Shown: positions 1 to 41,134 of the stretch, piece by piece | Layout: each line of letters starts with the position of its first letter | Position numbering within the stretch: position 1 is the stretch's first letter | Source: Oscillospiraceae bacterium | GTDB lineage: Bacteria; Bacillota; Clostridia; Oscillospirales; Oscillospiraceae | Length of the DNA stretch: 41,134 nt | Direction of reading: 5' to 3' | Assembly (NCBI GenBank): GCA_017513385.1 | Contig: JAFXFT010000195.1 | Span: 1-41,134, forward strand | Notes under the pieces: model-generated | What the model saw: the letters and a program-made list of their open reading frames with translations, nothing else | Databases searched by the model: none | Told to the model about the DNA's origin: nothing | Program-made: the position numbers and the translations under genes

Positions 1-243
1 ACCGGCGACTACAGCGCCGCCACCAATACCGGCGACTACAGCGCCGCCACCAATACCGGCTACTACAGCGCCGCCACCAACACCGGCGACCGCAGCGCCG
101 CCACCAATACCGGCAACTACAGCGCCGCCACCAATACCGGCTACCGCAGCGCCGCCACCAATACCGGCTACCGCAGCGCCGCCACCAATACCGGCGACCG
201 CAGCGCCGCCACCAATACCGGCGACTACAGCGCCGCCACCGTA
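1..243 (+). repeat. 27-bp in-frame tandem repeat, 9 units (accggcNacNNcagcgccgccaccaaY)
   Basis: Units start at 1, 28, 55, 82, 109, 136, 163, 190 and 217. They differ only at unit nt 7, nt 10-11 and nt 27. Confidence 0.97.
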
Positions 244-456
244 GGAAAAGGCGGAAGTGTCGCCATCGTTACAGGCTTCGATAGCAAGGCTCGCGCCGAT
301 ATCGGGAGCGCCATCGTGGTGTGTGAGCGAGGCGAGTGGAACGGCGAAACGTATCCGCTCCTTGGCATTCGGGCTGCCATCGTAGACGGCGTGGCCCTCA
401 AGGCCAATACGTTTTATAAACTGGTCAACGGCGAGTTTGTGGAGGCGGAGGAATGA
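1..456 (+). CDS. 3' part of the 9-aa-repeat protein (continuation of the CDS starting at 40482); 5'-truncated by the window edge
   Basis: Frame 1 is open from nt 1. It encodes nine units TG[D/Y/N][Y/R]SAATN, then a unique tail VGKGGSVAIVTGFDSKARADIGSAIVV...KLVNGEFVEAEE. The TGA at 454-456 overlaps the next ATG (ATGA). Confidence 0.85.
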   Translation, partial: TGDYSAATNTGDYSAATNTGYYSAATNTGDRSAATNTGNYSAATNTGYRSAATNTGYRSAATNTGDRSAATNTGDYSAATVGKGGSVAIVTGFDSKARADIGSAIVVCERGEWNGETYPLLGIRAAIVDGVALKANTFYKLVNGEFVEAEE

Positions 457-839
457 GCGCTACGGATCGTGCATCCCGCGGACGTGCGGCGCGCAATAAG
501 GGAAAGGTGGGAGAGCGCGAGTTTGCCGCCCTTTGCCGTGAACACGGCTACGACGCCCAGCGCACCGCCCAGAATCGAGGCAAGACCGGCGATGCCGGGG
601 ACGTGGAGGGGCTGCCGGGCATCCACGTAGAGGTAAAGCGCACCGAAACTCTTCGCCTGTGGGATGCACTGGAACAGAGCAAGCGCGATGCCGCAGCCGA
701 TAAGCGAGGCGGCATCCCCATCGTGGCCCACAGACCCAATAAGCGGCCATGGGTCGTCATCATGGAGGCGGAGGACTTCTTCGCCCTCTACAGGGCGTGG
801 GATAACGCAAGAGCGTGTTCACTGGCAAGTAAGCGGTAA
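453..839 (+). CDS. PD-(D/E)XK-type nuclease, possible Holliday-junction resolvase
   Basis: An SD (ggagg) lies upstream and the start is an ATGA overlap. The motif GDAGDVEGLPGIHVEVKR fits D...ExK, and the protein is small and basic. Confidence 0.55.
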   Translation: MSATDRASRGRAARNKGKVGEREFAALCREHGYDAQRTAQNRGKTGDAGDVEGLPGIHVEVKRTETLRLWDALEQSKRDAAADKRGGIPIVAHRPNKRPWVVIMEAEDFFALYRAWDNARACSLASKR

Positions 840-3652: not shown

Positions 3653-3889
3653 GTGATGGCTGAACTGAAACCGTGTCCGTTTTGTGGTGGAACAAAGCTG
3701 AAGATCGACAGCAAACGGACATTCCAGCATGGGAAAACACGGCATTGTTCTGTAACAGTCCGCTGCATGAAGTGCCATGCCAGAGGCCCGGTTGTCGGAA
3801 TCCAAATGCCGAATAGGCAGTATAACGAGCGTGAAATCTGCGAAAGCGCAGTAATCGAAGCATGGAACAGGAGAGTGGACAATGAGTGA
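3653..3889 (+). CDS. Lar-family restriction-alleviation-like zinc-ribbon protein
   Basis: ELKPCPFCGG...RCMKCHARGP...AVIEAWNRR matches the CPFCG...C..C...AWNRR pattern of Lar-family proteins. The true start may be the ATG at 3656. Confidence 0.6.
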   Translation: MMAELKPCPFCGGTKLKIDSKRTFQHGKTRHCSVTVRCMKCHARGPVVGIQMPNRQYNEREICESAVIEAWNRRVDNE

Positions 3890-9439: not shown

Positions 9440-12400
9440 TTACCACCTCCAGTCGTTCAGTTGGGTCTTGTCTGCTTTGAAGAGGTTATACATCTCATTG
9501 GCATACTGTTCCGGCCAGCCCTGACTCATAAGGGCAGCCACGATTTTTTGCCGCACGTTGCCGAGAGACTTTCCGTTGGCGTCCCGGTCAGACTCAATAG
9601 TGGCGTAGGCTTCGTAGAACTCCGCGAACCGCTCTGCGCTGTAACCGCGCTCCCGGGCCATTCGGTATTTTTGCGGGTAGTTGCTCCCCGCATCGAAGAA
9701 CAGCGGGACGTACTCGTCTGCGTCCTCACCGGCAGCCTTGGCCACATACTTGACCCGCTGCCACACGGCCACGGATTCGTTGTCACCCCACGGCTGCAGC
9801 TTCTGCGCCGCGCTGTAAAGGCCGATGTACTTGGCAGGGTCTTTGGCCTCCAGCGCTTCGCGCACCCAACTGTCCGGTTTGTAATTGGGGTCTACTTCAA
9901 GCATGGCTTTCGCCTTGCCCACCGCGTAGATATTCTCGATGGCCTTGGCCTTCTCGTCGTTGCTCATGTTCTTATACTGAGCGCTGCCGATAAGCGCCTC
10001 AGCCAGTTCAAGACGGGTAGATCCCATGGTGCGGTTGAACTGCTCGTATTCCTCGGCGGTCAGGTGCCGTTTGCCGGTGCTGTTGCCCTCGGCGTCTCTT
10101 GTAGTGATCTCGTCGCTCTGGGCGAAGCGCTGCGGGAATACGCTGGTATAGCCGAGGTCATAGAGTCTCTGCAGCTCGCCGTCCGCCGCCGTGCTGCGGT
10201 CGGTGGAGACGTAAGAGGGATTGAGGAACTGATTGAAAAGGTTGCCATCGCCGTAATCCTGCGTTCTGCCCCAAGCGTCGATGTAGTCCACCTGATTGTA
10301 CTCGCCGGGGAGCTTGTTCATAAGAGTGCCCACGAACCGCTGACCCGTCGGGTCGAGAACACCGGCGTGCTCGTCGTTGTAGCGGTAGGTCTCCTCTCTG
10401 CCAGTCTCGGTGCTGCGCTCAATCTGACCAAAGAGCGTAGGAATGAACTGGCTGAGATAGCTCGTCGCCGCCGTAGAAACATAGGCCATAAGACCTGCGT
10501 CACCGTACTTGCCTGTCTCCAGCATATCCTGAACACCCGACAGCATGGACATCTCCACAATGGGGTCGGCAATGTCCAGCATGGAGTCAATGCTCTCACG
10601 GAGTGTGAGGCCCTTGTCCTGCATAGCGTCCATGATCTCAGCACCAACGAACAGAGACACCGCACCCGGAGCCAGCCAGTCGATGGTGTAGTTCCTGTCA
10701 CCGACGGTCAGAGCGTAGCTCTGCTGACCCTGCAGGGAGTCGAAACCTGCCTGCTTATCGTCCTCGTCCTCGCTTCCACTGAGGATGCCCTGAGAGCGGA
10801 GGAACGCGCCAAGCAGCATAACGCCCGTGCCGGTGAGACCTGCAGCAAGCGAGTCAATGGCCTCGGCGGCAGACTTCCCAGCCTTAACGTCGTTGTGCAT
10901 CTGAACGACACCCTTGATGATGCCCACGGGCGAGTAGTCGATGGCACGAGCCAGAACGTTGGCCGGGGTCTTCTTGAACGGAAGAACACCCTCCACAAAA
11001 AGATTCGCTGCCTTTGCGACACCGCTGCCGGTATCGTTGCTCTGGGCTGCCCTGCGCACGCCGGAAGTTATCTTGTTAAGTCCTTCACTCAGCCAGTTGG
11101 CATCGCGGTATGTGGCTTTGGCTGCTTCCTGAATGGCCACTTCACGCGCTCTGGCCACCTGCTCAGCGGTCATGGTGCCGTTGGTGAAGTCAGCAGCCGT
11201 GAAACCGTTGGCCTTGAGATACATGGCCAAAGCAGAAGAATAGACGGGCTTGGAGAACAGAGTGTCGCCCTTCTCCATAGCGGTACCCACGGCCTTGCGA
11301 TAGGCTTCCAACAGACGGTTATTGAAGATGGCACGCTCTTTATCCACCTCACTCATAATGTCATCGCGGTACTTGCCGCCCGACTGGATGGCATCCTCCA
11401 CGTTGGCGAAGTCCATACCAGCGACCTGCAGCAGAGCCCGGTCAGAAGCCGAGGCTCGGTTCAACACGGCCTTGGTGCGCTCCATTCCTTCGGGCAGGAA
11501 CTGTTCGCCTACCGTGGCCAAAGCGTTCTTCACAACCCGGAACGGCACAAAGCCAGCGTTACCCGCAATGTTCCGTACCTGAGTGCGGAAGTTGCCGAGC
11601 ATGGCAAGGTATCTCCACGCCTGCAGCTTCTCCTTCCACGTCGCTGGCATCTGAGACGCGATGTCCTTGGTGATATTGGTCATGGCCTCCTTGGCCGCAG
11701 CCTCGTCACCTTTCACCAGAGCGTCCCGATAGGCCTCCAGCATAGTGGAGTCAATCTCAAGGTTCGGTGCCTTTTGGCCGAACTTAGCCGCAAGGCCCTG
11801 CTGCATATTCTCGACGCTCTTCACCACCATGTACAAACGGCCCTCCGGGGAGAGCTTATTGATGATGGACACAGCCTGCAAAGCCTGTGCGGTGGTCTTG
11901 GCGTTCTCGATGAGAAGAGATGCAACGTTCATGGCCGCGATGGTCCCCTCCGGCTTCCCGGAGTTGACCGCGTGGTTATACAGCGTAACGCCCAGAGCAG
12001 TAATGGACTTGGAGGACTGACCGTTGCGGACTGCGCTTTCGTACTGCTTCATAGCCTCGTTCCAGCCAAGGCCGGTGATGGTCTTTTCTGCACCGGCCAC
12101 AGCCTCTGCGTCACTGTACGGGATGCGGGAGAACTTGCCCTCCGTAACGTCCTTCTGCAGCGCCGCCGCAAAGTCATTGGGTGTGATCTTCGCATTAGCC
12201 AGCGTGGAGGATGTCTTGGGCGTGAGCTGACCGTTGATGCCCTCGACGGGTACGTTCACCGGCCCGCGGCCGCGCTCGGCCTGAGTCTCCTGCTGCGCCT
12301 GTTCGTTGATAGGATGGAACGGCCCGGTAGGCTGCTGTTCCGCACCCAAAAGCGCGTCAACCATAGGGTTGCTCGGCTGCGCGGGGGCCTCCTTGACAAG

Positions 12401-14128
12401 CGGGCTGTTTTGTGGTAGGGTATCAACAACAGAGGTTGTTGCGATTTCCGGTTCGGCCGTAAACGCTGGGGCAGTAGCATCAGTGGAGCGCATCGCCTCT
12501 GGTTTATTTTGGGCCATGTATGCGGAAACGATGTACGTGGTCTTTTTCTTTGTGTCTGGTACTGCTTCAACCACATAATAAGTCCCGTTTACTGCCTTGC
12601 TGAATACAACGGTCTTTGCCGGGTGGTTTCGTCCTTTTTCGTCTGGGGAAACGTAAGAGGTGGTTGTGCCGCCGTCTACTATATCGTCGTAGTTATCCAG
12701 AACATATTGGATCCGCCCAAAGTCGTTTAGGTCTTTCATGCTCTGGTCGGCGTTTCCCTGCGGCCCGTGCCGGTCATAGATATGCTCAGCCATGCGCTGC
12801 TCAATAACCGTTTTATTACCGGTGGTGTCTACCCCGGTAATTCTTTTTATGTCAGCGGCTGCCCGTTTTGAAACAGGCTTGAGCTCATAGCGGCCCCGAT
12901 TAGTGCCACGGTTTGCAACAGACTGTTCCATGAACTCTACAAGCCCATCGTCTACGGAATTTTGGTATTCCTCAATGACACGCTGCTCCACGGGAGTATG
13001 CTGCGTCGGGTCGGTGTTTACGCTGGTGCTGTCCTCCTCAATAATAAGAGGAGACTTTTGCTCCTGCTTAGGTGCTTCGGCCTTCTGCTCCTGCTCGATG
13101 ATAAGCGGAGACTTCCAGCCAGGATACTCGCTAAGACCGCCGGTAGCCAAGTCGCCAGCTGCGCCAATGACAGCGCCCAACATAGCGGAGTACAGCGCTT
13201 CATTCCCAAGCCCTTTGCGCCCCTCGGCTGTGCCGTAACTTTCCTTTGCGGCTTTGCCCTCGTCATAGATGGCCTTGAGGAACGGACTGAGCGCCGCGGT
13301 CAGCGCCTCCTCGCCACCCTCGCCCGCTGCATTGGCAAGGCGCTGCAAAGCCCACTGTGCGGTTTCGTTGCCGCCCGCCCTTTTCACAAGCCCCTTTACG
13401 AGGTCGTCCGTCAGACTCTTGCCGTAAATCTTATCCAGACCACCTGTGAGCTTCTCAATGCCCGCTTCAACACCGGCGGAGGCGGCACCGTAGGCAAGGG
13501 CTTCATTGAGCGTAGCGCCATTTTGTTCGGCCTCGTAGGCACCCCCGCCGAAAGCGCCAGCAGCTGTGACGGCCATCGTAGGCAGCTTTGTCAAAGCGGA
13601 AATAGCGACATCCGTTGCGAGGCCGGAACCGCCTTCAATGGCCTGCAGAGCGAACTGTCCCACCTTGCCAGTGCCGTCATTGGCCCGCTGACTTACGGTT
13701 TCATATTCTTTCCGGGCTTCGTCCGCTTTGTTGTAAAGCCAGTCGAAGGGGGTTTTATCTTCGTTGGCACGACCACTGGCGGCTCCAACCCTCTCCGCAA
13801 GCTTACCAGCAGCTTCAAACAGGTTAGCTTCTTTGTCGAGCATACCGAGCTGCAGAGCGTCCATGGTTTTGGCCGTTCCGGTCTCCAGCGTATTGCGGAC
13901 ACGCTCATACCATGGTGTATTGTTGCCGGTGGCCTTGTCCAGTTCCGGGGTCCGCACGGGCTTATAAGATGGGACGCTATTGGGCAGCAACGTTAGCTCG
14001 CTGTCATAGTTCTTTGCTTTGCCGGCGGAGCCGTTGGATGCTCCGCCCTGTTTCTGCATATAGCTGGGCTTTACACGGTTGCCTGCAACCGCTTTTTCGT
14101 CCAGAACCAAAAGATTTTTAGAGGCCAT
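9440..14128 (-). CDS. 1562-aa virion internal / ejection-type polyvalent protein with an embedded nuclease-like module
   Basis: It is the largest ORF and is translationally packed between tail genes and the endolysin. It has a Gly/Ala-rich N-terminal third, a module with AEHIYDRHG...TYYVVEAVPDTKKKTTYIVSAYM, and a long helical C-terminal part. Confidence 0.6.
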   Translation of the reverse strand: MASKNLLVLDEKAVAGNRVKPSYMQKQGGASNGSAGKAKNYDSELTLLPNSVPSYKPVRTPELDKATGNNTPWYERVRNTLETGTAKTMDALQLGMLDKEANLFEAAGKLAERVGAASGRANEDKTPFDWLYNKADEARKEYETVSQRANDGTGKVGQFALQAIEGGSGLATDVAISALTKLPTMAVTAAGAFGGGAYEAEQNGATLNEALAYGAASAGVEAGIEKLTGGLDKIYGKSLTDDLVKGLVKRAGGNETAQWALQRLANAAGEGGEEALTAALSPFLKAIYDEGKAAKESYGTAEGRKGLGNEALYSAMLGAVIGAAGDLATGGLSEYPGWKSPLIIEQEQKAEAPKQEQKSPLIIEEDSTSVNTDPTQHTPVEQRVIEEYQNSVDDGLVEFMEQSVANRGTNRGRYELKPVSKRAAADIKRITGVDTTGNKTVIEQRMAEHIYDRHGPQGNADQSMKDLNDFGRIQYVLDNYDDIVDGGTTTSYVSPDEKGRNHPAKTVVFSKAVNGTYYVVEAVPDTKKKTTYIVSAYMAQNKPEAMRSTDATAPAFTAEPEIATTSVVDTLPQNSPLVKEAPAQPSNPMVDALLGAEQQPTGPFHPINEQAQQETQAERGRGPVNVPVEGINGQLTPKTSSTLANAKITPNDFAAALQKDVTEGKFSRIPYSDAEAVAGAEKTITGLGWNEAMKQYESAVRNGQSSKSITALGVTLYNHAVNSGKPEGTIAAMNVASLLIENAKTTAQALQAVSIINKLSPEGRLYMVVKSVENMQQGLAAKFGQKAPNLEIDSTMLEAYRDALVKGDEAAAKEAMTNITKDIASQMPATWKEKLQAWRYLAMLGNFRTQVRNIAGNAGFVPFRVVKNALATVGEQFLPEGMERTKAVLNRASASDRALLQVAGMDFANVEDAIQSGGKYRDDIMSEVDKERAIFNNRLLEAYRKAVGTAMEKGDTLFSKPVYSSALAMYLKANGFTAADFTNGTMTAEQVARAREVAIQEAAKATYRDANWLSEGLNKITSGVRRAAQSNDTGSGVAKAANLFVEGVLPFKKTPANVLARAIDYSPVGIIKGVVQMHNDVKAGKSAAEAIDSLAAGLTGTGVMLLGAFLRSQGILSGSEDEDDKQAGFDSLQGQQSYALTVGDRNYTIDWLAPGAVSLFVGAEIMDAMQDKGLTLRESIDSMLDIADPIVEMSMLSGVQDMLETGKYGDAGLMAYVSTAATSYLSQFIPTLFGQIERSTETGREETYRYNDEHAGVLDPTGQRFVGTLMNKLPGEYNQVDYIDAWGRTQDYGDGNLFNQFLNPSYVSTDRSTAADGELQRLYDLGYTSVFPQRFAQSDEITTRDAEGNSTGKRHLTAEEYEQFNRTMGSTRLELAEALIGSAQYKNMSNDEKAKAIENIYAVGKAKAMLEVDPNYKPDSWVREALEAKDPAKYIGLYSAAQKLQPWGDNESVAVWQRVKYVAKAAGEDADEYVPLFFDAGSNYPQKYRMARERGYSAERFAEFYEAYATIESDRDANGKSLGNVRQKIVAALMSQGWPEQYANEMYNLFKADKTQLNDWRW

Positions 14129-30111: not shown

Positions 30112-30291
30112 ATGATGCTTTTTGCTTTTGCTCTTGAGCTGCTTATGGCCGTAATTCTCGGCGAGGAACTGCTTTATTGGGCTCTTGCCTTATGGCTCTT
30201 TGCCTTGTGGCTTCGCCGTATGGTTAACCAATACCGGGACGACATCGCAGCCCGTAATTGGGGCCGCGAGTATTTCGCAAGGAAGTATTGA
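30112..30291 (+). CDS. small membrane protein (59 aa, below the ORF-track cutoff): MMLFAFALELLMAVILGEELLYWALALWLFALWLRRMVNQYRDDIAARNWGREYFARKY
   Basis: The SD tggagg lies upstream, and there are two hydrophobic segments. Confidence 0.5.
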   Translation: MMLFAFALELLMAVILGEELLYWALALWLFALWLRRMVNQYRDDIAARNWGREYFARKY

Positions 30292-30677: not shown

Positions 30678-30898
30678 AAATTTACTGGAAATTTACTGGA
30701 AACGCGCTACATTCTACGACATATTTCACCATATTTTTACATCATCTAAAAACCAGCAAAGCATTGATTCATAAAGAAAAATCCCGGAAACTCAACGGTT
30801 TCCGGGATTGACTGTTTGGCGGGAATATGTGGGAATCGAAGCCACAAAGAATATAGTATTATCAATGCTTTCGTGGATTTTTACTGTAATTTTACTGA
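30678..30898. other. candidate attP region with arm-type repeat pairs
   Basis: A tandem pair AAATTTACTGG x2 lies at 30678-30699 and a tandem pair A(T/A)TTTTACTG(T/A) lies at 30877-30898. Both have the same orientation and bracket about 180 bp directly 3' of the integrase gene. Confidence 0.5.
30771..30809 (-). terminator. rho-independent terminator of the integrase transcript
   Basis: A 12-bp stem (aatcccggaaac / gtttccgggatt) is followed by ttttctttat on the minus strand. Confidence 0.75.
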
Positions 30899-30909
30899 TA
30901 GGCTATAAA

Positions 30910-31929
30910 TTATTGAATATCTATACTATACAATCCTTCGCGGATTTTAGCCTTATGCGCATCCCGCAAATGCGTATACACGTCTTTCGTCGTCTGAATC
31001 TGCGCATGCCCGAGCAGCTCCTGTGCGTCACTGTCAGATACCCCGGCCTCGAAGAGCATCACCGTGTAAGAGTGCCGGAGCTGATGAGGGGTGCAGGTTA
31101 CCCCGGTAAGCTCCTTGTACTTTGCCCATGCGCTTTGGCATTGCGCGTCGGTGTATGCCTCTCCTCGGAAGTTCTTGAATACCGGCCCCTTGCCCTTTTC
31201 AACGCGCTCCAAGAGCTTATCAAGGATAGGGACTACACGAATACCGGCCTGTGTCTTGGGGGCTTTCACGGCTTCCCTGCGGCCTCCTACGATGGACAGG
31301 CTTTTGTTGACTGTTATCGTCCGGTTTTCCGTGTCCACGTCGTCCCATGTGAGCGCCCGCAGCTCACCACGGCGCAGCCCGGTATACAGCGCCCAATAAG
31401 CGAAGTCCCCGAACGGGAGATCATAAGAGGCCTTTATAGTGGCGATGTCCTCGGCACTTGCCATGTCCCGGGCCGCCTTATCAAGCCCTTTCGGCACTAC
31501 CAACTCCCGCGCCGGGTTTAGATCGGCATAGCCCATCTGTACGGCGTAACGGCAGATCAGGTTGATGACCATAAGTTGAGTGCGGGCGGTCTTGTCGGCC
31601 ATGTGGTGGGCTTTCACGGCTCGATTGATAAATACGCTTATGTCCTTGGGGCGCAGCTCCTTTATGCTGATGCTGCCAAGCGCCTCAACCGCCCGGTTCA
31701 TGGCGGGGACATAGCCCTTGTGGGTGGAGGCTGCCAGCTTCGGCCCTGCATCCTCCCACCACTCAGCGGCGACCGCTGCGAATGTCTGGCCGCTCTCGGC
31801 CTTTTCGGTGTAGTCGGCGATCTTGCGCAGTACCTCCGCTTTGGTCTTGCCATAGACAACCTTGCGCTTGCCGCCGGTGATATCCCGCGGCAGCTCTTGT
31901 TGATAAAGGCCATCTTTCCGCCGTTTCAT
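30910..31929 (-). CDS. int: tyrosine-type site-specific integrase
   Basis: The catalytic region reads YTGLRRGELRALTWDDV ... HQLRHSY ... LLGHAQIQTTKDVYTH (R, HxxR, Y). An N-terminal SAM-like arm/core-binding region is present. Confidence 0.9.
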   Translation of the reverse strand: MKRRKDGLYQQELPRDITGGKRKVVYGKTKAEVLRKIADYTEKAESGQTFAAVAAEWWEDAGPKLAASTHKGYVPAMNRAVEALGSISIKELRPKDISVFINRAVKAHHMADKTARTQLMVINLICRYAVQMGYADLNPARELVVPKGLDKAARDMASAEDIATIKASYDLPFGDFAYWALYTGLRRGELRALTWDDVDTENRTITVNKSLSIVGGRREAVKAPKTQAGIRVVPILDKLLERVEKGKGPVFKNFRGEAYTDAQCQSAWAKYKELTGVTCTPHQLRHSYTVMLFEAGVSDSDAQELLGHAQIQTTKDVYTHLRDAHKAKIREGLYSIDIQ

Positions 31930-38525: not shown

Positions 38526-39176
38526 ATGGCAAGAGAATACTTCCACTGCTATCATTCCATGCTACGCGGAACGCGCAATCTCTCGGAAGCAGAGTGCGGG
38601 AGGCTGTTTAGGGCGCTGATTGCATACAGCGCAGGAGACGAGCTTATCAATCTTCAGGGCCGGGAAGCAGCGGTGTTTGATGTGTACGCAGAACAGATAG
38701 ACAGGGAGAAAGCCCAGTACGCCGAGAAGTGCGAAAAGATGCGCCAGAACGGGAAAGCAAATGCTGCCAAATGCTATCAATTGCAAGCAAATGCTACCAA
38801 TTGCCACCAAGGCAAAGACAAAGGCGAAGACAAAGACGAAGAAAAATATACACCCCCTGTATCCCCCTCAAGGGGGCGCAAGGTGGTCTTTGAGCATGAA
38901 TCTGAGCCGTATCGGGTGGCGAAATATCTTTCCGAGCGCATTGTGGAGCGAATCGGCATTGCGCCTCACCCGGAAACAAAGCTCCAGACGTGGGCGAACG
39001 ACGTGGACAAACTGCATCGCATTGATGGCCGCCCTTGGGAAGAGATAGGCCGCGTCATGGAATGGTGCCAGTATAACGACTTCTGGCAGGTGAACATCCT
39101 GAGCGGCGCGAAGTTCCGGGAGAAATACGACCAGCTTTTGAGCAAGGCGAAACAGGAGGGTTACGTGGATGGCTGA
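38526..39176 (+). CDS. replisome organizer / DnaD-like replication initiation protein
   Basis: The N-terminal YFHCYHSMLRG...LSEAECGRLFRALIAY, the low-complexity linker and the C-terminal WCQYNDFWQVNILSGAKFREKYDQL fit the family. The gene lies upstream of dnaB. Confidence 0.7.
   Translation: MAREYFHCYHSMLRGTRNLSEAECGRLFRALIAYSAGDELINLQGREAAVFDVYAEQIDREKAQYAEKCEKMRQNGKANAAKCYQLQANATNCHQGKDKGEDKDEEKYTPPVSPSRGRKVVFEHESEPYRVAKYLSERIVERIGIAPHPETKLQTWANDVDKLHRIDGRPWEEIGRVMEWCQYNDFWQVNILSGAKFREKYDQLLSKAKQEGYVDG
38758..38807 (+). repeat. five 10-bp phased CAA(A/T)TGC units (iteron-like) inside the organizer gene
   Basis: The units caaatgctgc / caaatgctat / caattgcaag / caaatgctac / caattgccac start at 38758, 38768, 38778, 38788 and 38798. 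Confidence 0.85.
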
Positions 39177-40455
39177 TATGGAACTCGCCCTTTGCGGGGC
39201 TATCTGCATCGACCCGGACCGCATCCTGCCCCGCATCCACGGCCTCGTAGAGTCAGACGACTTCGAGGATGCCAAGTGCGCCGTGATTTTCGATACGGTC
39301 ACCGAAACGGCAAGCCGTGGCCGCACCCTGGACGCGGTGCTCATTGCGGACGCCGTAACGCCCATGTTCTCCTCCCGGGTGGAGGCGGAGGCGTTCATTC
39401 GGTCCTGCATGGAGCTTTGCCCCACGCTTGTCAATGCCGAGCTGCACGCCAAGCGGATACACAAAGCAGCGCGGGACAGGAAGATACGCAGCATCATTGA
39501 CCGCTCCCTGTATTCCGATCTGGACGGCGACGAGCTGGCCGCATCGGTTATCAGCGAGTGTCAGGACTTTCTCAAGGCCGAGCACAGCGCCCGCACGACA
39601 ACGCTGGATGATGCGCTGCAGGCCATGTACAGGGGTCTTGGCGAAAAGGACGGACCGCGCATTGACACCGGTTTCCCCAAGCTGGACAGCATTCTGAAGG
39701 GGCTCCCGGCGGGAAGCCTCACCCTCATCGGTGCAAGACCGTCCGTTGGTAAATCCGCCTTTTCCGAGGATCTGGCGCTTACCGTTGCCCGGCAGGGGAA
39801 GCCCGTACTCCTGTTCTCCATGGAAATGGACGCGGAAGAGCTCGCCGAACGAGCTGCCGCCAGAGAAGCGCTCATACCCCTGAGTGCCTACATCGACAAG
39901 AATCTCACGCAGGAGCAGTATCAGGCAACGGCGGCCGCTTGCAACTATATGGGCCGCTGGCCGCTGCATATCTGCGATGCGCCCAATGTGTCCACGTCAA
40001 AAATCCGGTCTCTGGCCCGGAGCATACCGAACCTTGCGCTTATCATCGTGGACTACATCGGTCTCATGCAGGCTGTAAAATCCAACGACTCGCGAAATCT
40101 GGAGCTTGGTGCTATCTCCCGCGATCTCAAAAACCTTGCGTCCGAGCTGCGCGTTCCCATCGTGGCGCTGGCCCAGCTTAACCGCATGGTTTCGGATACC
40201 CAGAAACCTACACTTGCCAACATCCGCGATTCCGGCGAACTGGAGCAAAACGCCAGCAAGGTGCTCTTCCTCTGGAACGAGGATAAAATGCTCGGCGTTG
40301 TCGGCGTGAGCGTCGCCAAGAACCGGCGCGGCTCGACCGGCGAGGTGTACATGCGCTTCGACGGGAATTACATGAGCTATAAGGAACTATCCGAATACAA
40401 GCCTGCCGAGAGATCGGAAGAAACCAGACAGTTCGGCCAAAAGCGCTGCCTTTGA
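39169..40455 (+). CDS. dnaB: DnaB-family replicative helicase
   Basis: Walker A is GARPSVGKSAF and Walker B-like is LIIVDYIGLM. The sequence also contains VPIVALAQLNR, RDSGELEQNA and NRRG. Confidence 0.9.
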   Translation: MADMELALCGAICIDPDRILPRIHGLVESDDFEDAKCAVIFDTVTETASRGRTLDAVLIADAVTPMFSSRVEAEAFIRSCMELCPTLVNAELHAKRIHKAARDRKIRSIIDRSLYSDLDGDELAASVISECQDFLKAEHSARTTTLDDALQAMYRGLGEKDGPRIDTGFPKLDSILKGLPAGSLTLIGARPSVGKSAFSEDLALTVARQGKPVLLFSMEMDAEELAERAAAREALIPLSAYIDKNLTQEQYQATAAACNYMGRWPLHICDAPNVSTSKIRSLARSIPNLALIIVDYIGLMQAVKSNDSRNLELGAISRDLKNLASELRVPIVALAQLNRMVSDTQKPTLANIRDSGELEQNASKVLFLWNEDKMLGVVGVSVAKNRRGSTGEVYMRFDGNYMSYKELSEYKPAERSEETRQFGQKRCL

Positions 40456-40481: not shown

Positions 40482-41134
40482 ATGACGCATTACAAGGGTT
40501 TTGATAAAGACCTCAAGTGCCGGGGGTACCAGTACGAGGTCGACAAGGAATACGAACAGGACGGCAAAGTGAAGTGCTGCGAGAACGGCTTTCACGCCTG
40601 CGAGGCGCCGCTGGCTGTGTTCAACTACTATCCCCCGGCGGAGAGCCGTTACTGCGAGGTGGAGCAGTCCGGCAGCATCCACAAGGATGGCGATAAGACC
40701 GCCAGCAGCAAAATTAAAATCGGCGCTGAAATCGGCATTCCCGGCCTCGTCAAGGCGCACGTGGAGTGGGTCAAGGCGAACGTGAAAACCGAGAGCGCCG
40801 CCACCAATACCGGCTACCGCAGCGCCGCCACCAATACCGGCGACTACAGCGCCGCCACCAATACCGGCGACCGCAGCGCCGCCACCAACACCGGCTACTA
40901 CAGCGCCGCCACCAATACCGGCTACCGCAGCGCCGCCACCAATACCGGCGACTACAGCGCCGCCACCAATACCGGCTACCGCAGCGCCGCCACCAACACC
41001 GGCTACTACAGCGCCGCCACCAACACCGGCTACTACAGCGCCGCCACCAACACCGGCGACCGCAGCGCCGCCACCAATACCGGCGACTACAGCGCCGCCA
41101 CCAAGACCGGCTACCGCAGCGCCGCCACCAACAC
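40482..41134 (+). CDS. 5' part of the 9-aa-repeat protein: unique Cys-containing N-domain plus 12 repeat units; 3'-truncated by the window edge
   Basis: The SD aaaggag lies 7 nt upstream. The sequence is MTHYKGFDKDLKCRGYQYEVDKEYEQDGKVKCCENGFHACEAPLAVFNYYPPAESRYCEVEQSG..., then TG[D/Y][Y/R]SAATN x12. There is no stop before the window end. Confidence 0.85.
   Translation, partial: MTHYKGFDKDLKCRGYQYEVDKEYEQDGKVKCCENGFHACEAPLAVFNYYPPAESRYCEVEQSGSIHKDGDKTASSKIKIGAEIGIPGLVKAHVEWVKANVKTESAATNTGYRSAATNTGDYSAATNTGDRSAATNTGYYSAATNTGYRSAATNTGDYSAATNTGYRSAATNTGYYSAATNTGYYSAATNTGDRSAATNTGDYSAATKTGYRSAATN
40794..41134 (+). repeat. 27-bp in-frame tandem repeat, 12 full units
   Basis: Units start at 40809 and recur every 27 nt to 41132. 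This is the same unit as at 1-243. Confidence 0.97.

Follow-up and report, generated by a model that had tools for sequence, protein, structure and literature searches.

What could a phage protein be doing with a long array of near-identical nine-residue repeats that differ from one another at the same two adjacent residues? The question is raised by a gene in contig JAFXFT010000195.1 of assembly GCA_017513385.1 (Oscillospiraceae bacterium), which was analysed over its whole length of 41,134 nt (the window) and which represents a temperate phage with an integrase, a large terminase, a portal and a major head protein. The gene is split between the two ends of the window, with its start, a DUF7666 head domain and twelve repeat units at one end, and nine further units and a small C-terminal domain at the other. 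The units are 27 nt long and of the form T-G-x1-x2-S-A-A-T-N, where x1 and x2 are the variable residues. On balance, we favour the interpretation that the array forms a capped rod with a reshufflable binding surface of x1 and x2 side chains, which would recognise or sequester a macromolecule of the host or of a rival phage early in infection.

The repeat units and their variable pair

Splitting the array into units in the frame of the ATG at 40482 gave the order YR DY DR YY YR DY YR YY YY DR DY(K) YR at 40809-41132 and DY DY YY DR NY YR YR DR DY(V) at 1-243. Both blocks had a period of 27 by TRF (40794-41131 and 1-240), and all 21 units shared the one frame, which runs on from the DUF7666 head into the cap, confirming that the array is coding. 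A preliminary description of this DNA had counted DY six times, YR six times, YY four times, DR four times and NY once, and these counts were reproduced exactly. Its statement that every unit reads T-G-x1-x2-S-A-A-T-N stood for 19 of the 21 units, which end in N, and fell for the unit at 41079, which ends in K (AAG, 41103-41105; the wobble-base change there is not silent), and for the last unit (217-243), which ends in V (GTA). Per-site diversity, calculated over 20 of the 21 units with the terminal unit left out, was 0.57 at nt 7, 0.53 at each of nt 10 and 11, 0.51 at nt 27 and zero at all other positions, confirming that the units differ solely at nt 7, nt 10-11 and the last wobble base.

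The likeness to a repeat-variable di-residue, drawn at first from the window array alone, extends to the whole family, in which the same pair of codons was found to vary. The unit consensus was TGxxSAATN in 2013 units from 120 homologs, with an entropy of 2.4 bits at x1, 3.0 bits at x2 and at most 1.2 bits elsewhere. Among 82 arrays, nt 7 was polymorphic in 100%, nt 10 in 90% and nt 11 in 85%, and framework sites in at most 33%; variation in homologous arrays is thus concentrated at x1 and x2 and not spread evenly over the nine positions. Mean within-array diversity amounted to 0.63, 0.43 and 0.39 at nt 7, 10 and 11, respectively, compared with 0.053 for third positions that are synonymous and 0.011 for the first and second positions of framework codons. 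Diversity at the x1/x2 sites is therefore ~8-12 times the synonymous level, so that their heterogeneity is maintained and not merely tolerated.

The two alphabets are restricted. Residue x1 was D, N or Y ([G/A/T]A[C/T] codons) in 94% of units, with His in 6 of 1144, and x2 was encoded by a YRN codon (Q, R, Y, W or C) in ~91%, with His found 11 times; because of this restriction and the depletion of His, x1 and x2 are not simply free sites. They are also coupled, since units with Y at x1 favour Q and seldom have Y, W or C at x2 (YY was observed 40 times vs 135 expected), which makes the four YY units of the window unusual. In related arrays between 2 and 14 codon-pair types occur (median 5), out of ~3 x 5 states, and the 2x2 set of four states emphasised in the preliminary description proved to be peculiar to the window array. 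Unit order within arrays was near random, with a depletion of identical neighbours (z -2 to -4.5) and, among lag correlations, a weak lag-3 excess only (z about +3). No Asp-Arg pairing was seen at any lag, and neither a coil period nor a salt-bridge ladder was established from lag correlations. One aromatic residue per unit was preferred, 45% of units carried none, and Asp occupied x1 in only ~40% of units. The array has a pI (isoelectric point) of 7.8 and a net charge per unit near zero, and charge neutrality was constrained no more tightly than at random. The pI and net charge led us to reject a DNA mimic, as they are unlike those of acidic DNA mimics.

In ES18, phi2 and Montmirail (see below) the framework is nucleotide-identical within the array, and synonymous codons differ between phages, including a switch of the serine codon between TCN and AGY (TCA or TCG vs AGC). 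This combination points to selection on the protein together with concerted evolution. Of the two explanations first offered for the lack of synonymous drift, concerted evolution holds, and recent expansion is not needed, the pattern being kept in every lineage examined.

The family is very large, with at least 8000 homologs in a protein search, from Salmonella, Pseudomonas, Haemophilus and Bacteroides prophages and from metagenomes, and 4435 cluster representatives when the head domain by itself was searched exhaustively. Salmonella phage ES18 (gp53), Pseudomonas phage phi2 (gp13) and Blautia phage Montmirail, all cultured and fully sequenced, carry the same architecture, and the array is not a chance feature; further relatives occur in Vibrio, Acinetobacter, Ralstonia and Pseudanabaena phages. 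ES18 gp53 and the DUF7666/phrog_4433 proteins are true homologs, sharing the head, the repeat architecture, the cap and the early-region position. The window array is longer than most of theirs (at least 21 units vs a median of 17) and uses the YY unit, which is otherwise rare among them. Unit number ranged from 11 to 20 in complete proteins and up to 33 in viral loci. The copy of Salmonella phage S107 (L085, 3989-4648) has four units only (SW, DR, DW, DC) and is either a truly short array or a collapsed assembly.

Several members depart from the common plan. P0052 (453 aa) has an extra N-terminal domain of ~130 aa (VFVFGSNKEGNHAGGAAKLA...SYAIPT), without a Pfam match, before the DUF7666 head. 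In P0222, P0229 and P0248 the arrays are degenerate and framework positions vary too, so homogenisation is not universal in the family. Six further entries (P0122, P0129, P0135, P0141, P0213 and P0266) are out-of-frame array translations, with repeats such as QQQAIVEL and RQQRRLRAD, so either the arrays were missequenced or the frameshifts are real; the label given in Salmonella phage Emek is 'similar to ES18 gp53 with frameshift'. In GenBank record MG592551.1 (Vibrio phage 1.185.O) the homologous array is annotated as CRISPR spacers, and other records bear the labels 'c-type lectin precursor', 'putative ADP-ribosyltransferase', 'ATPase domain-containing protein' and 'pentapeptide'. The lectin, ADP-ribosyltransferase and ATPase labels were unsupported, as Pfam gave DUF7666 only on the window homolog; the pentapeptide label is supported for one Rheinheimera protein, described next. 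NCBIfam returned sub-threshold, low-complexity matches only, to collagen-like adhesins and YdhT, and nothing was found in complete E. coli genomes queried with the ES18 and E. coli-phage copies. Catalogues list the family solely as a domain and PHROGs of unknown function, and no paper was found on DUF7666, ES18 gp53, the unit motif SAATNTG or the variable di-residue.

Sister lineages combine the same head with other repeats. In the Rheinheimera 'barba' phages, a DUF7666 head (5e-21) is followed by ~25 five-residue units N-T-G-x1-x2, with N, D, F or Y at x1 and R, Q, W, L or F at x2, and this array matches PF01469 (Pentapeptide_2) at 6.6e-37. When the best 150 of the 4435 head-domain representatives were surveyed without a preset motif, 78 had three or more units, with a period of 9 or 8 and in frameworks that include xxSAATNTG, xxGAATAG, xxAxIGSSG and xxSALTGG. 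Exactly two positions were variable in 45 of these arrays; they were adjacent in 41 of the 45 and directly followed Gly in 40 of the 41, with mostly D, Y or N at x1 and mostly R, Q, Y or S at x2. The Gly-x1-x2 pair is thus kept in 8-aa, other 9-aa and 5-aa frameworks. Proteins of giant viruses combine the head domain with ankyrin or DUF4116 repeats, and the overall picture is of a conserved head with an interchangeable repeat module. Rheinheimera phage Barba5A also has, two genes downstream of its DUF7666 gene, a canonical pentapeptide-repeat protein (gp043; L086, 5157-5669; PF00805, 5.4e-31), likewise an early transcript.

Predicted structure and competing readings

In a full-length AlphaFold model, the head and the cap had predicted local distance difference test (pLDDT) scores above 90. 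A model of the window's nine units with the cap reached a pLDDT of 90.8 and a predicted TM-score (pTM) of 0.84, with 94-97 for the cap. Both models place A-A-T-N(-T) in a short strand and G-x1-x2-S in a turn. The idea that the variable pair lies on an exposed face agrees with these predictions in that x1 and x2 fall in the turn and not in the strand, exposure itself being read from position. Foldseek found nothing significant in the PDB for either model, the best, weak resemblances being to beta-helices (CAP/CARP domain, pentapeptide-repeat proteins and RTX block V). A sequence search of solved structures with the whole protein returned a low-complexity Spt5 repeat only, profile searches with the head and cap domains returned nothing meaningful, and no Pfam repeat family matched the array alone at E up to 10.

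Taken together, these observations suggest that the array would be the central rod of a cytoplasmic early phage protein, a beta-solenoid-like stack between the DUF7666 head and the small C-terminal cap. Within each nine-residue unit, A-A-T-N-T would form a short beta-strand and G-x1-x2-S a tight turn, of which the two middle residues vary. Stacking of the turns would align ladders of D/N/Y and of R/Q/Y/W/C side chains into a combinatorial surface. Gain, loss and conversion of whole units would keep the framework nucleotide-identical and reshuffle unit order, while selection would keep several x1x2 states in every array. Such a surface could serve the recognition or sequestration of a variable host or rival-phage macromolecule in early infection, and a role in early host takeover or counter-defence is probable. 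The coding array, its family, the place of the variable residues in the predicted turn, the pattern of selection, the mode of array change and the high early expression of a relative are observed here, whereas the binding role of the ladders and the nature of their target are inferred.

Several points weigh against a binding rod of this kind. The repeat region had a pLDDT of only 50-70 in the full-length model, and x1 and x2 are apparently solvent-exposed, judging from their position in the turn alone. The preference for one aromatic residue per unit could reflect packing instead of binding. There is no ligand, interaction or phenotype on record for any member, and no paper was found. The PADLOC models of known defence systems gave no family match at E up to 0.1, anti-defence families being outside that search. 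No single partner gene was conserved among ~70 viral loci. Finally, much of the array divergence between relatives comes from short-read assemblies, which are unreliable for such arrays (PMC12222747).

A purely structural rod or spacer is possible, although we give it clearly less weight than a capped rod that binds. The array would then supply length or scaffold only, and x1 and x2 would tolerate change or alternate for packing or register. The wide variation in unit number, the near-random order within arrays, the preference for one aromatic per unit and the depletion of identical neighbouring units would all be accommodated. A spacer is, however, difficult to reconcile with an x1/x2 diversity so far above the synonymous level, with the exclusion of His and of most single-step neighbours at these residues, and with the recurrence of the same alphabets in 5-, 8- and 9-residue frameworks. 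Nor would packing or register readily explain the 45% of units that lack an aromatic residue, or the lack of D-to-R pairing at any lag.

The preliminary description had raised a four-letter code for nucleic-acid recognition. By analogy with the transcription activator-like effectors (TALEs), each unit would contact one DNA or RNA base, x1x2 would specify the base and the array would spell out its target. The window array happens to use four main states, the gene lies among DNA-transaction genes, and D/N/Y and R/Q/Y/W are typical base-contacting or stacking residues in TALE and PUF codes. We nevertheless consider a code of this kind unlikely. Arrays hold 2-14 unit types with a median of five, and not four; x1 and x2 are coupled; near-identical phages carry quite different arrays; and no nucleic-acid-binding fold or family was detected by Pfam or Foldseek. 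Under any one-to-one mapping, the longest self-genome matches of the window and phi2 arrays were no better than those of shuffled arrays, a weak test that covers the phage's own genome and one-to-one mappings, and not host targets or degenerate codes. A DNA-reading code found no support.

A broader proposal, which goes beyond the capped rod and which we regard as doubtful, is that DUF7666 proteins are modular scaffolds in which the Gly-anchored di-residue of each 5-9-residue unit contacts one element of the target. If so, the element would be a base, a sugar or a residue of an extended peptide, and reshuffling of units would reprogram specificity, giving a beta-solenoid counterpart of the TALE or PUF codes in phage conflicts with hosts and rivals.

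It is very unlikely that the array is a self-assembling, low-complexity domain in which N/Q/Y/G/S/T-rich repeats drive amyloid-like or condensate assembly. Judged by composition, it would resemble prion-like oligopeptide repeats, and in one relative the transcript is very abundant early. The array is, however, confidently predicted as a capped monomeric strand-turn stack between conserved globular domains, its framework is under strict purifying selection and its variable alphabets are defined.

Still less probable is that the array acts as DNA, with its coding potential incidental, whether as replication iterons, as a hot spot of recombination or as a false CRISPR-like element. The array does lie in the replication module, and one GenBank record annotates its homolog as CRISPR spacers, as mentioned above. 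Against this, the amino-acid framework is conserved with different codons, the TCN/AGY serine switch included, the frame is continuous with the conserved head and cap domains, the annotated origin of ES18 lies in another gene, and the window has separate iteron-like repeats at 38758-38846. Replication-origin iterons were rejected as an identity for the array, its conservation being at the protein level and its codons differing between phages.

Array change, independent assemblies and gene setting

The Rheinheimera isolates allowed array change to be followed within one lineage. Over the gene, 110 of 115 isolates were at least 99% identical, with no hypermutation from generation to generation. 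The differences consisted of one unit lost and of one unit gained with swaps, and a further isolate differed at three bases, two of them converting one NR unit to DW, which is also the unit type on either side of it, a change that fits gene conversion within the array. Among relatives, pairs with identical head and cap often carry very different arrays (median normalised edit distance 0.77). On this sequence evidence, arrays change by gain, loss and conversion of units and not by a mutator. Targeted hypermutation by a diversity-generating retroelement (DGR) or another mutator is all but excluded: variation is confined to two codons, the NAC/NAT codon of x1 recalls the AAC codons of DGR targets and relatives are sometimes annotated 'C-type lectin', but the x1 codon never varies at its second base (A), the changes at x2 (T/C and A/G) are not adenine-specific, the near-identical isolates had been collected over years, the changes observed are unit indels and conversions, and no reverse transcriptase (RT) was found among ~26 open reading frames (ORFs) scanned with PHROGs and Pfam, a scan that included no dedicated RT or template-repeat search of the window.

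The window end has two bases (AC) beyond its last unit, and a join of end to start is 2 nt out of frame, which places the contig break within the array. Exact look-up of two neighbouring proteins retrieved the same phage from other public assemblies, with flanks 99.98-100% identical; exact-match probes from the window's head-domain DNA had no match in viral, genome or metagenome collections, and a near-identity search with window 14000-38000 had none in the phage collection. Contig L094, from another sample, begins within the array and matched the last nine units over 240 nt, wobble markers included, apart from an A/G difference at nt 7 of unit 5 (window nt 115) that turns NY into DY, the sole difference in 4839 aligned nt. 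Contig L096 matched the last four units. In L090 and L093 the first unit is joined straight to the last, giving a 197-aa product of a collapsed array, and L091, L092, L097 and L098 stop at the array edges, L091 and L092 at the first unit. The L094 unit preceding window position 1 ends in AAT and the last tail unit of the window in AAC, so that the ends of the window may lie apart in the array. Both the array and the order of its units are real; uncertainty is limited to the middle of the array and to how many units there are in all, and because another assembly collapses the array to two units, the figure of at least 21 is a lower bound only. That the assembler made the array or its unit order is scarcely conceivable: the contig break inside the array, the collapse to two units and the ending of ~19 of 80 related viral contigs in the array, together with several GenBank phage records that start or stop at the gene, are what an artefact might leave, but an independent sample repeats nine units base for base, one single-nucleotide polymorphism apart, and the Sanger-era ES18 genome and other cultured phages share the architecture.

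The gene itself and its neighbours are listed in Table 1. The assignment of the N-terminal domain as DUF7666-like was correct: the head matched PF24703 over aa 1-91 (E=2.4e-37, 127.7 bits vs a cut-off of 27), with K5, G6, C13, Y50, H38 and E41 as conserved residues. The whole protein matched phrog_4433 at E=8.2e-127, and its C-terminal ~97 aa (aa 271-366 of the joined protein, last array units included) matched phrog_27197 at E=5e-72. For the C-terminal domain alone (70 aa) no Pfam or PDB relative was found, and Pfam on the window protein gave DUF7666 only, with no NOD/STAND ATPase, WD40, ANK or TPR.

Table 1. Features of the repeat gene and of its immediate neighbours in the window
Feature	Position	Strand	Basis
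DnaB-like replicative helicase, upstream neighbour	39169-40455	+	Pfam DnaB_C 8.6e-64; phrog_19 4e-88
Ribosome-binding site AAGGAG, 6 nt upstream of start codon	40470-40475	+	Read from sequence
Start codon and DUF7666 head, aa 1-104	40482-40793	+	Pfam PF24703
Partial lead-in unit E-S-A-A-T-N, sets repeat register	40794-40808	+	Translation
Twelve 27-nt units T-G-x1-x2-S-A-A-T-N	40809-41132	+	Unit splitting in ATG 40482 frame; TRF
Nine 27-nt units, 3' end of array	1-243	+	Unit splitting; TRF
Degenerating cap units and small C-terminal beta domain	244-456	+	phrog_27197, AlphaFold
Small Holliday-junction resolvase-type nuclease, downstream neighbour	453-839	+	phrog_244 'RusA-like resolvase' 3.4e-23

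The placing of the gene in the early or replication arm, between dnaB and a nuclease, was likewise upheld, with matches of the nuclease to Pfam PDDEXK_15 and Hjc below threshold. The order in this arm is a Sak-like annealing protein, SSB, a DnaD-like loader, DnaB, the repeat gene and the resolvase-type nuclease, with a DNA methyltransferase, a PAPS-reductase-like protein and an RNA ligase further downstream. The stop codon of the repeat gene (TGA, 454-456) overlaps the ATG of the resolvase gene (453-455), which suggests translational coupling of the two. In ES18 and S107 the gene comes first after antiterminator N in the early-left operon. Flanking ORFs could be called at ~70 of 80 viral loci (69 upstream, 62 downstream), which had SSB, Ant anti-repressors, N, Ral, HNH, RusA, recombination exonucleases, Gam, Erf/Sak/RecE, Kil and methyltransferases among the neighbours. 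The transcript of the Rheinheimera homolog gp041 peaks at the first time point, at 15.0-15.7 log counts per million (cpm), which is the level of the phage DNA polymerase and primase and the highest in its gene block, and later drops by ~2.5-3.6 units on the log cpm scale (PMC9305737 Table S2). The function probably matters in infection, given that the transcript of at least one member ranks with the most abundant phage transcripts of the early phase.

Other features of the window were noted in passing. Tandem repeats CAAATGCTAC (x5.3) and AAGGCGAAGACA (x3.2) at 38758-38846 lie inside the DnaD-like replication-organiser gene (38526-39176) and look like origin iterons embedded in an initiator gene, as in lambda O, where origin iterons lie within the initiator gene. 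An ORF at 3653-3889 (+), which lies ~3.2 kb downstream of the repeat gene and still within the early arm, is the counterpart of a 77-aa restriction-alleviation gene in L095 with a precomputed Pfam Lar_restr_allev (PF14354) match. A 1562-aa ORF (9440-14128, -) without a PHROG match adjoins the virion genes, is overlapped by a 1013-aa ORF on the other strand, and may encode a tail or host-interaction protein. The integrase gene (30910-31929, -) has short tandem repeats just upstream, at 30180-30223 and 30678-30702, which are candidate attachment-site or arm-type binding repeats.

Significance and comparison with known systems

The family is widespread in phages and prophages of Salmonella, Pseudomonas, Haemophilus, Vibrio, Acinetobacter, Ralstonia, Bacteroides, Blautia and cyanobacteria. 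Because of its arrays, phage assemblies are repeatedly broken, collapsed or frameshifted and records mis-annotated (as CRISPR spacers, C-type lectin, pentapeptide or ADP-ribosyltransferase), and unit counts from short reads are not trustworthy for them. The scaffold could also interest protein design.

Among known systems, the TALEs come close in design and in evolutionary logic, being built of near-identical tandem units with two adjacent variable loop residues, reshuffled by recombination and hard to assemble. The window units share the near-identity and the two adjacent hypervariable residues. However, TALE units are helical, have 33-35 residues and read one DNA base each, whereas those of the window have nine residues, are predicted to form a strand and a turn, belong to a family with more than four states and coupled x1 and x2, and had no DNA target detected in the phage's own genome.

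The pentapeptide repeats offer a second comparison. With PF01469 (X-N-X-G-X, mycobacterial PPE-MPTR) the window unit has the core T-N-T-G-x in common, and its model weakly resembles in fold NleL and the PF00805 pentapeptide-repeat proteins QnrB1 and AlbG (Qnr, MfpA, AlbG). In contrast to pentapeptide repeats, the unit has four extra residues, which are predicted to form the strand, and none of PF00805, PF01469, PF13576 and PF13599 matched the window protein at E up to 1 or the array at E up to 10; nor is the array acidic, unlike the DNA-mimicking Qnr and MfpA. The RTX beta-roll (GGxGxDxUx) resembles the array in its nine-residue period and in the alternation of a short strand with a Gly-containing turn, and structural matches of this type were weak (serralysin-like protein, E=0.057 in BFVD; RTX block V, E=7 in the PDB by Foldseek). 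The window array differs in having neither the GGxGxD calcium-binding consensus nor a HemolysinCabind match, in belonging to a cytoplasmic protein without a secretion signal, and in its low frequency of Asp at x1.

A parallel in mode of evolution is found in the highly internally conserved WD40, ANK and TPR repeats of fungal NOD-like receptor (NLR) sensors (HET-E, HET-D, NWD family). Their near-identical units are of polymorphic number and evolve in concert, diversifying selection acts on a few hypervariable positions in each unit, which map to the binding surface, and the arrays defeat short-read assembly (PMC4986451, PMC12222747). The phage arrays likewise combine concerted evolution with hypervariable positions whose diversity selection maintains. 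The fungal units, however, have 33-42 residues, build propellers or helical solenoids and belong to NOD-domain immune receptors of eukaryotes, whereas the phage units of 5-9 residues are predicted to stack as beta strands and turns behind a DUF7666 head, with a putative role in binding. The principle of homogenised repeats with hypervariable positions is already known; what appears new is its realisation in beta units of 5-9 residues by a family of early phage proteins that is very large. If the ladders do bind, they would represent a previously undescribed and extremely compact form of reshufflable recognition, with two residues per 5-9-residue unit.

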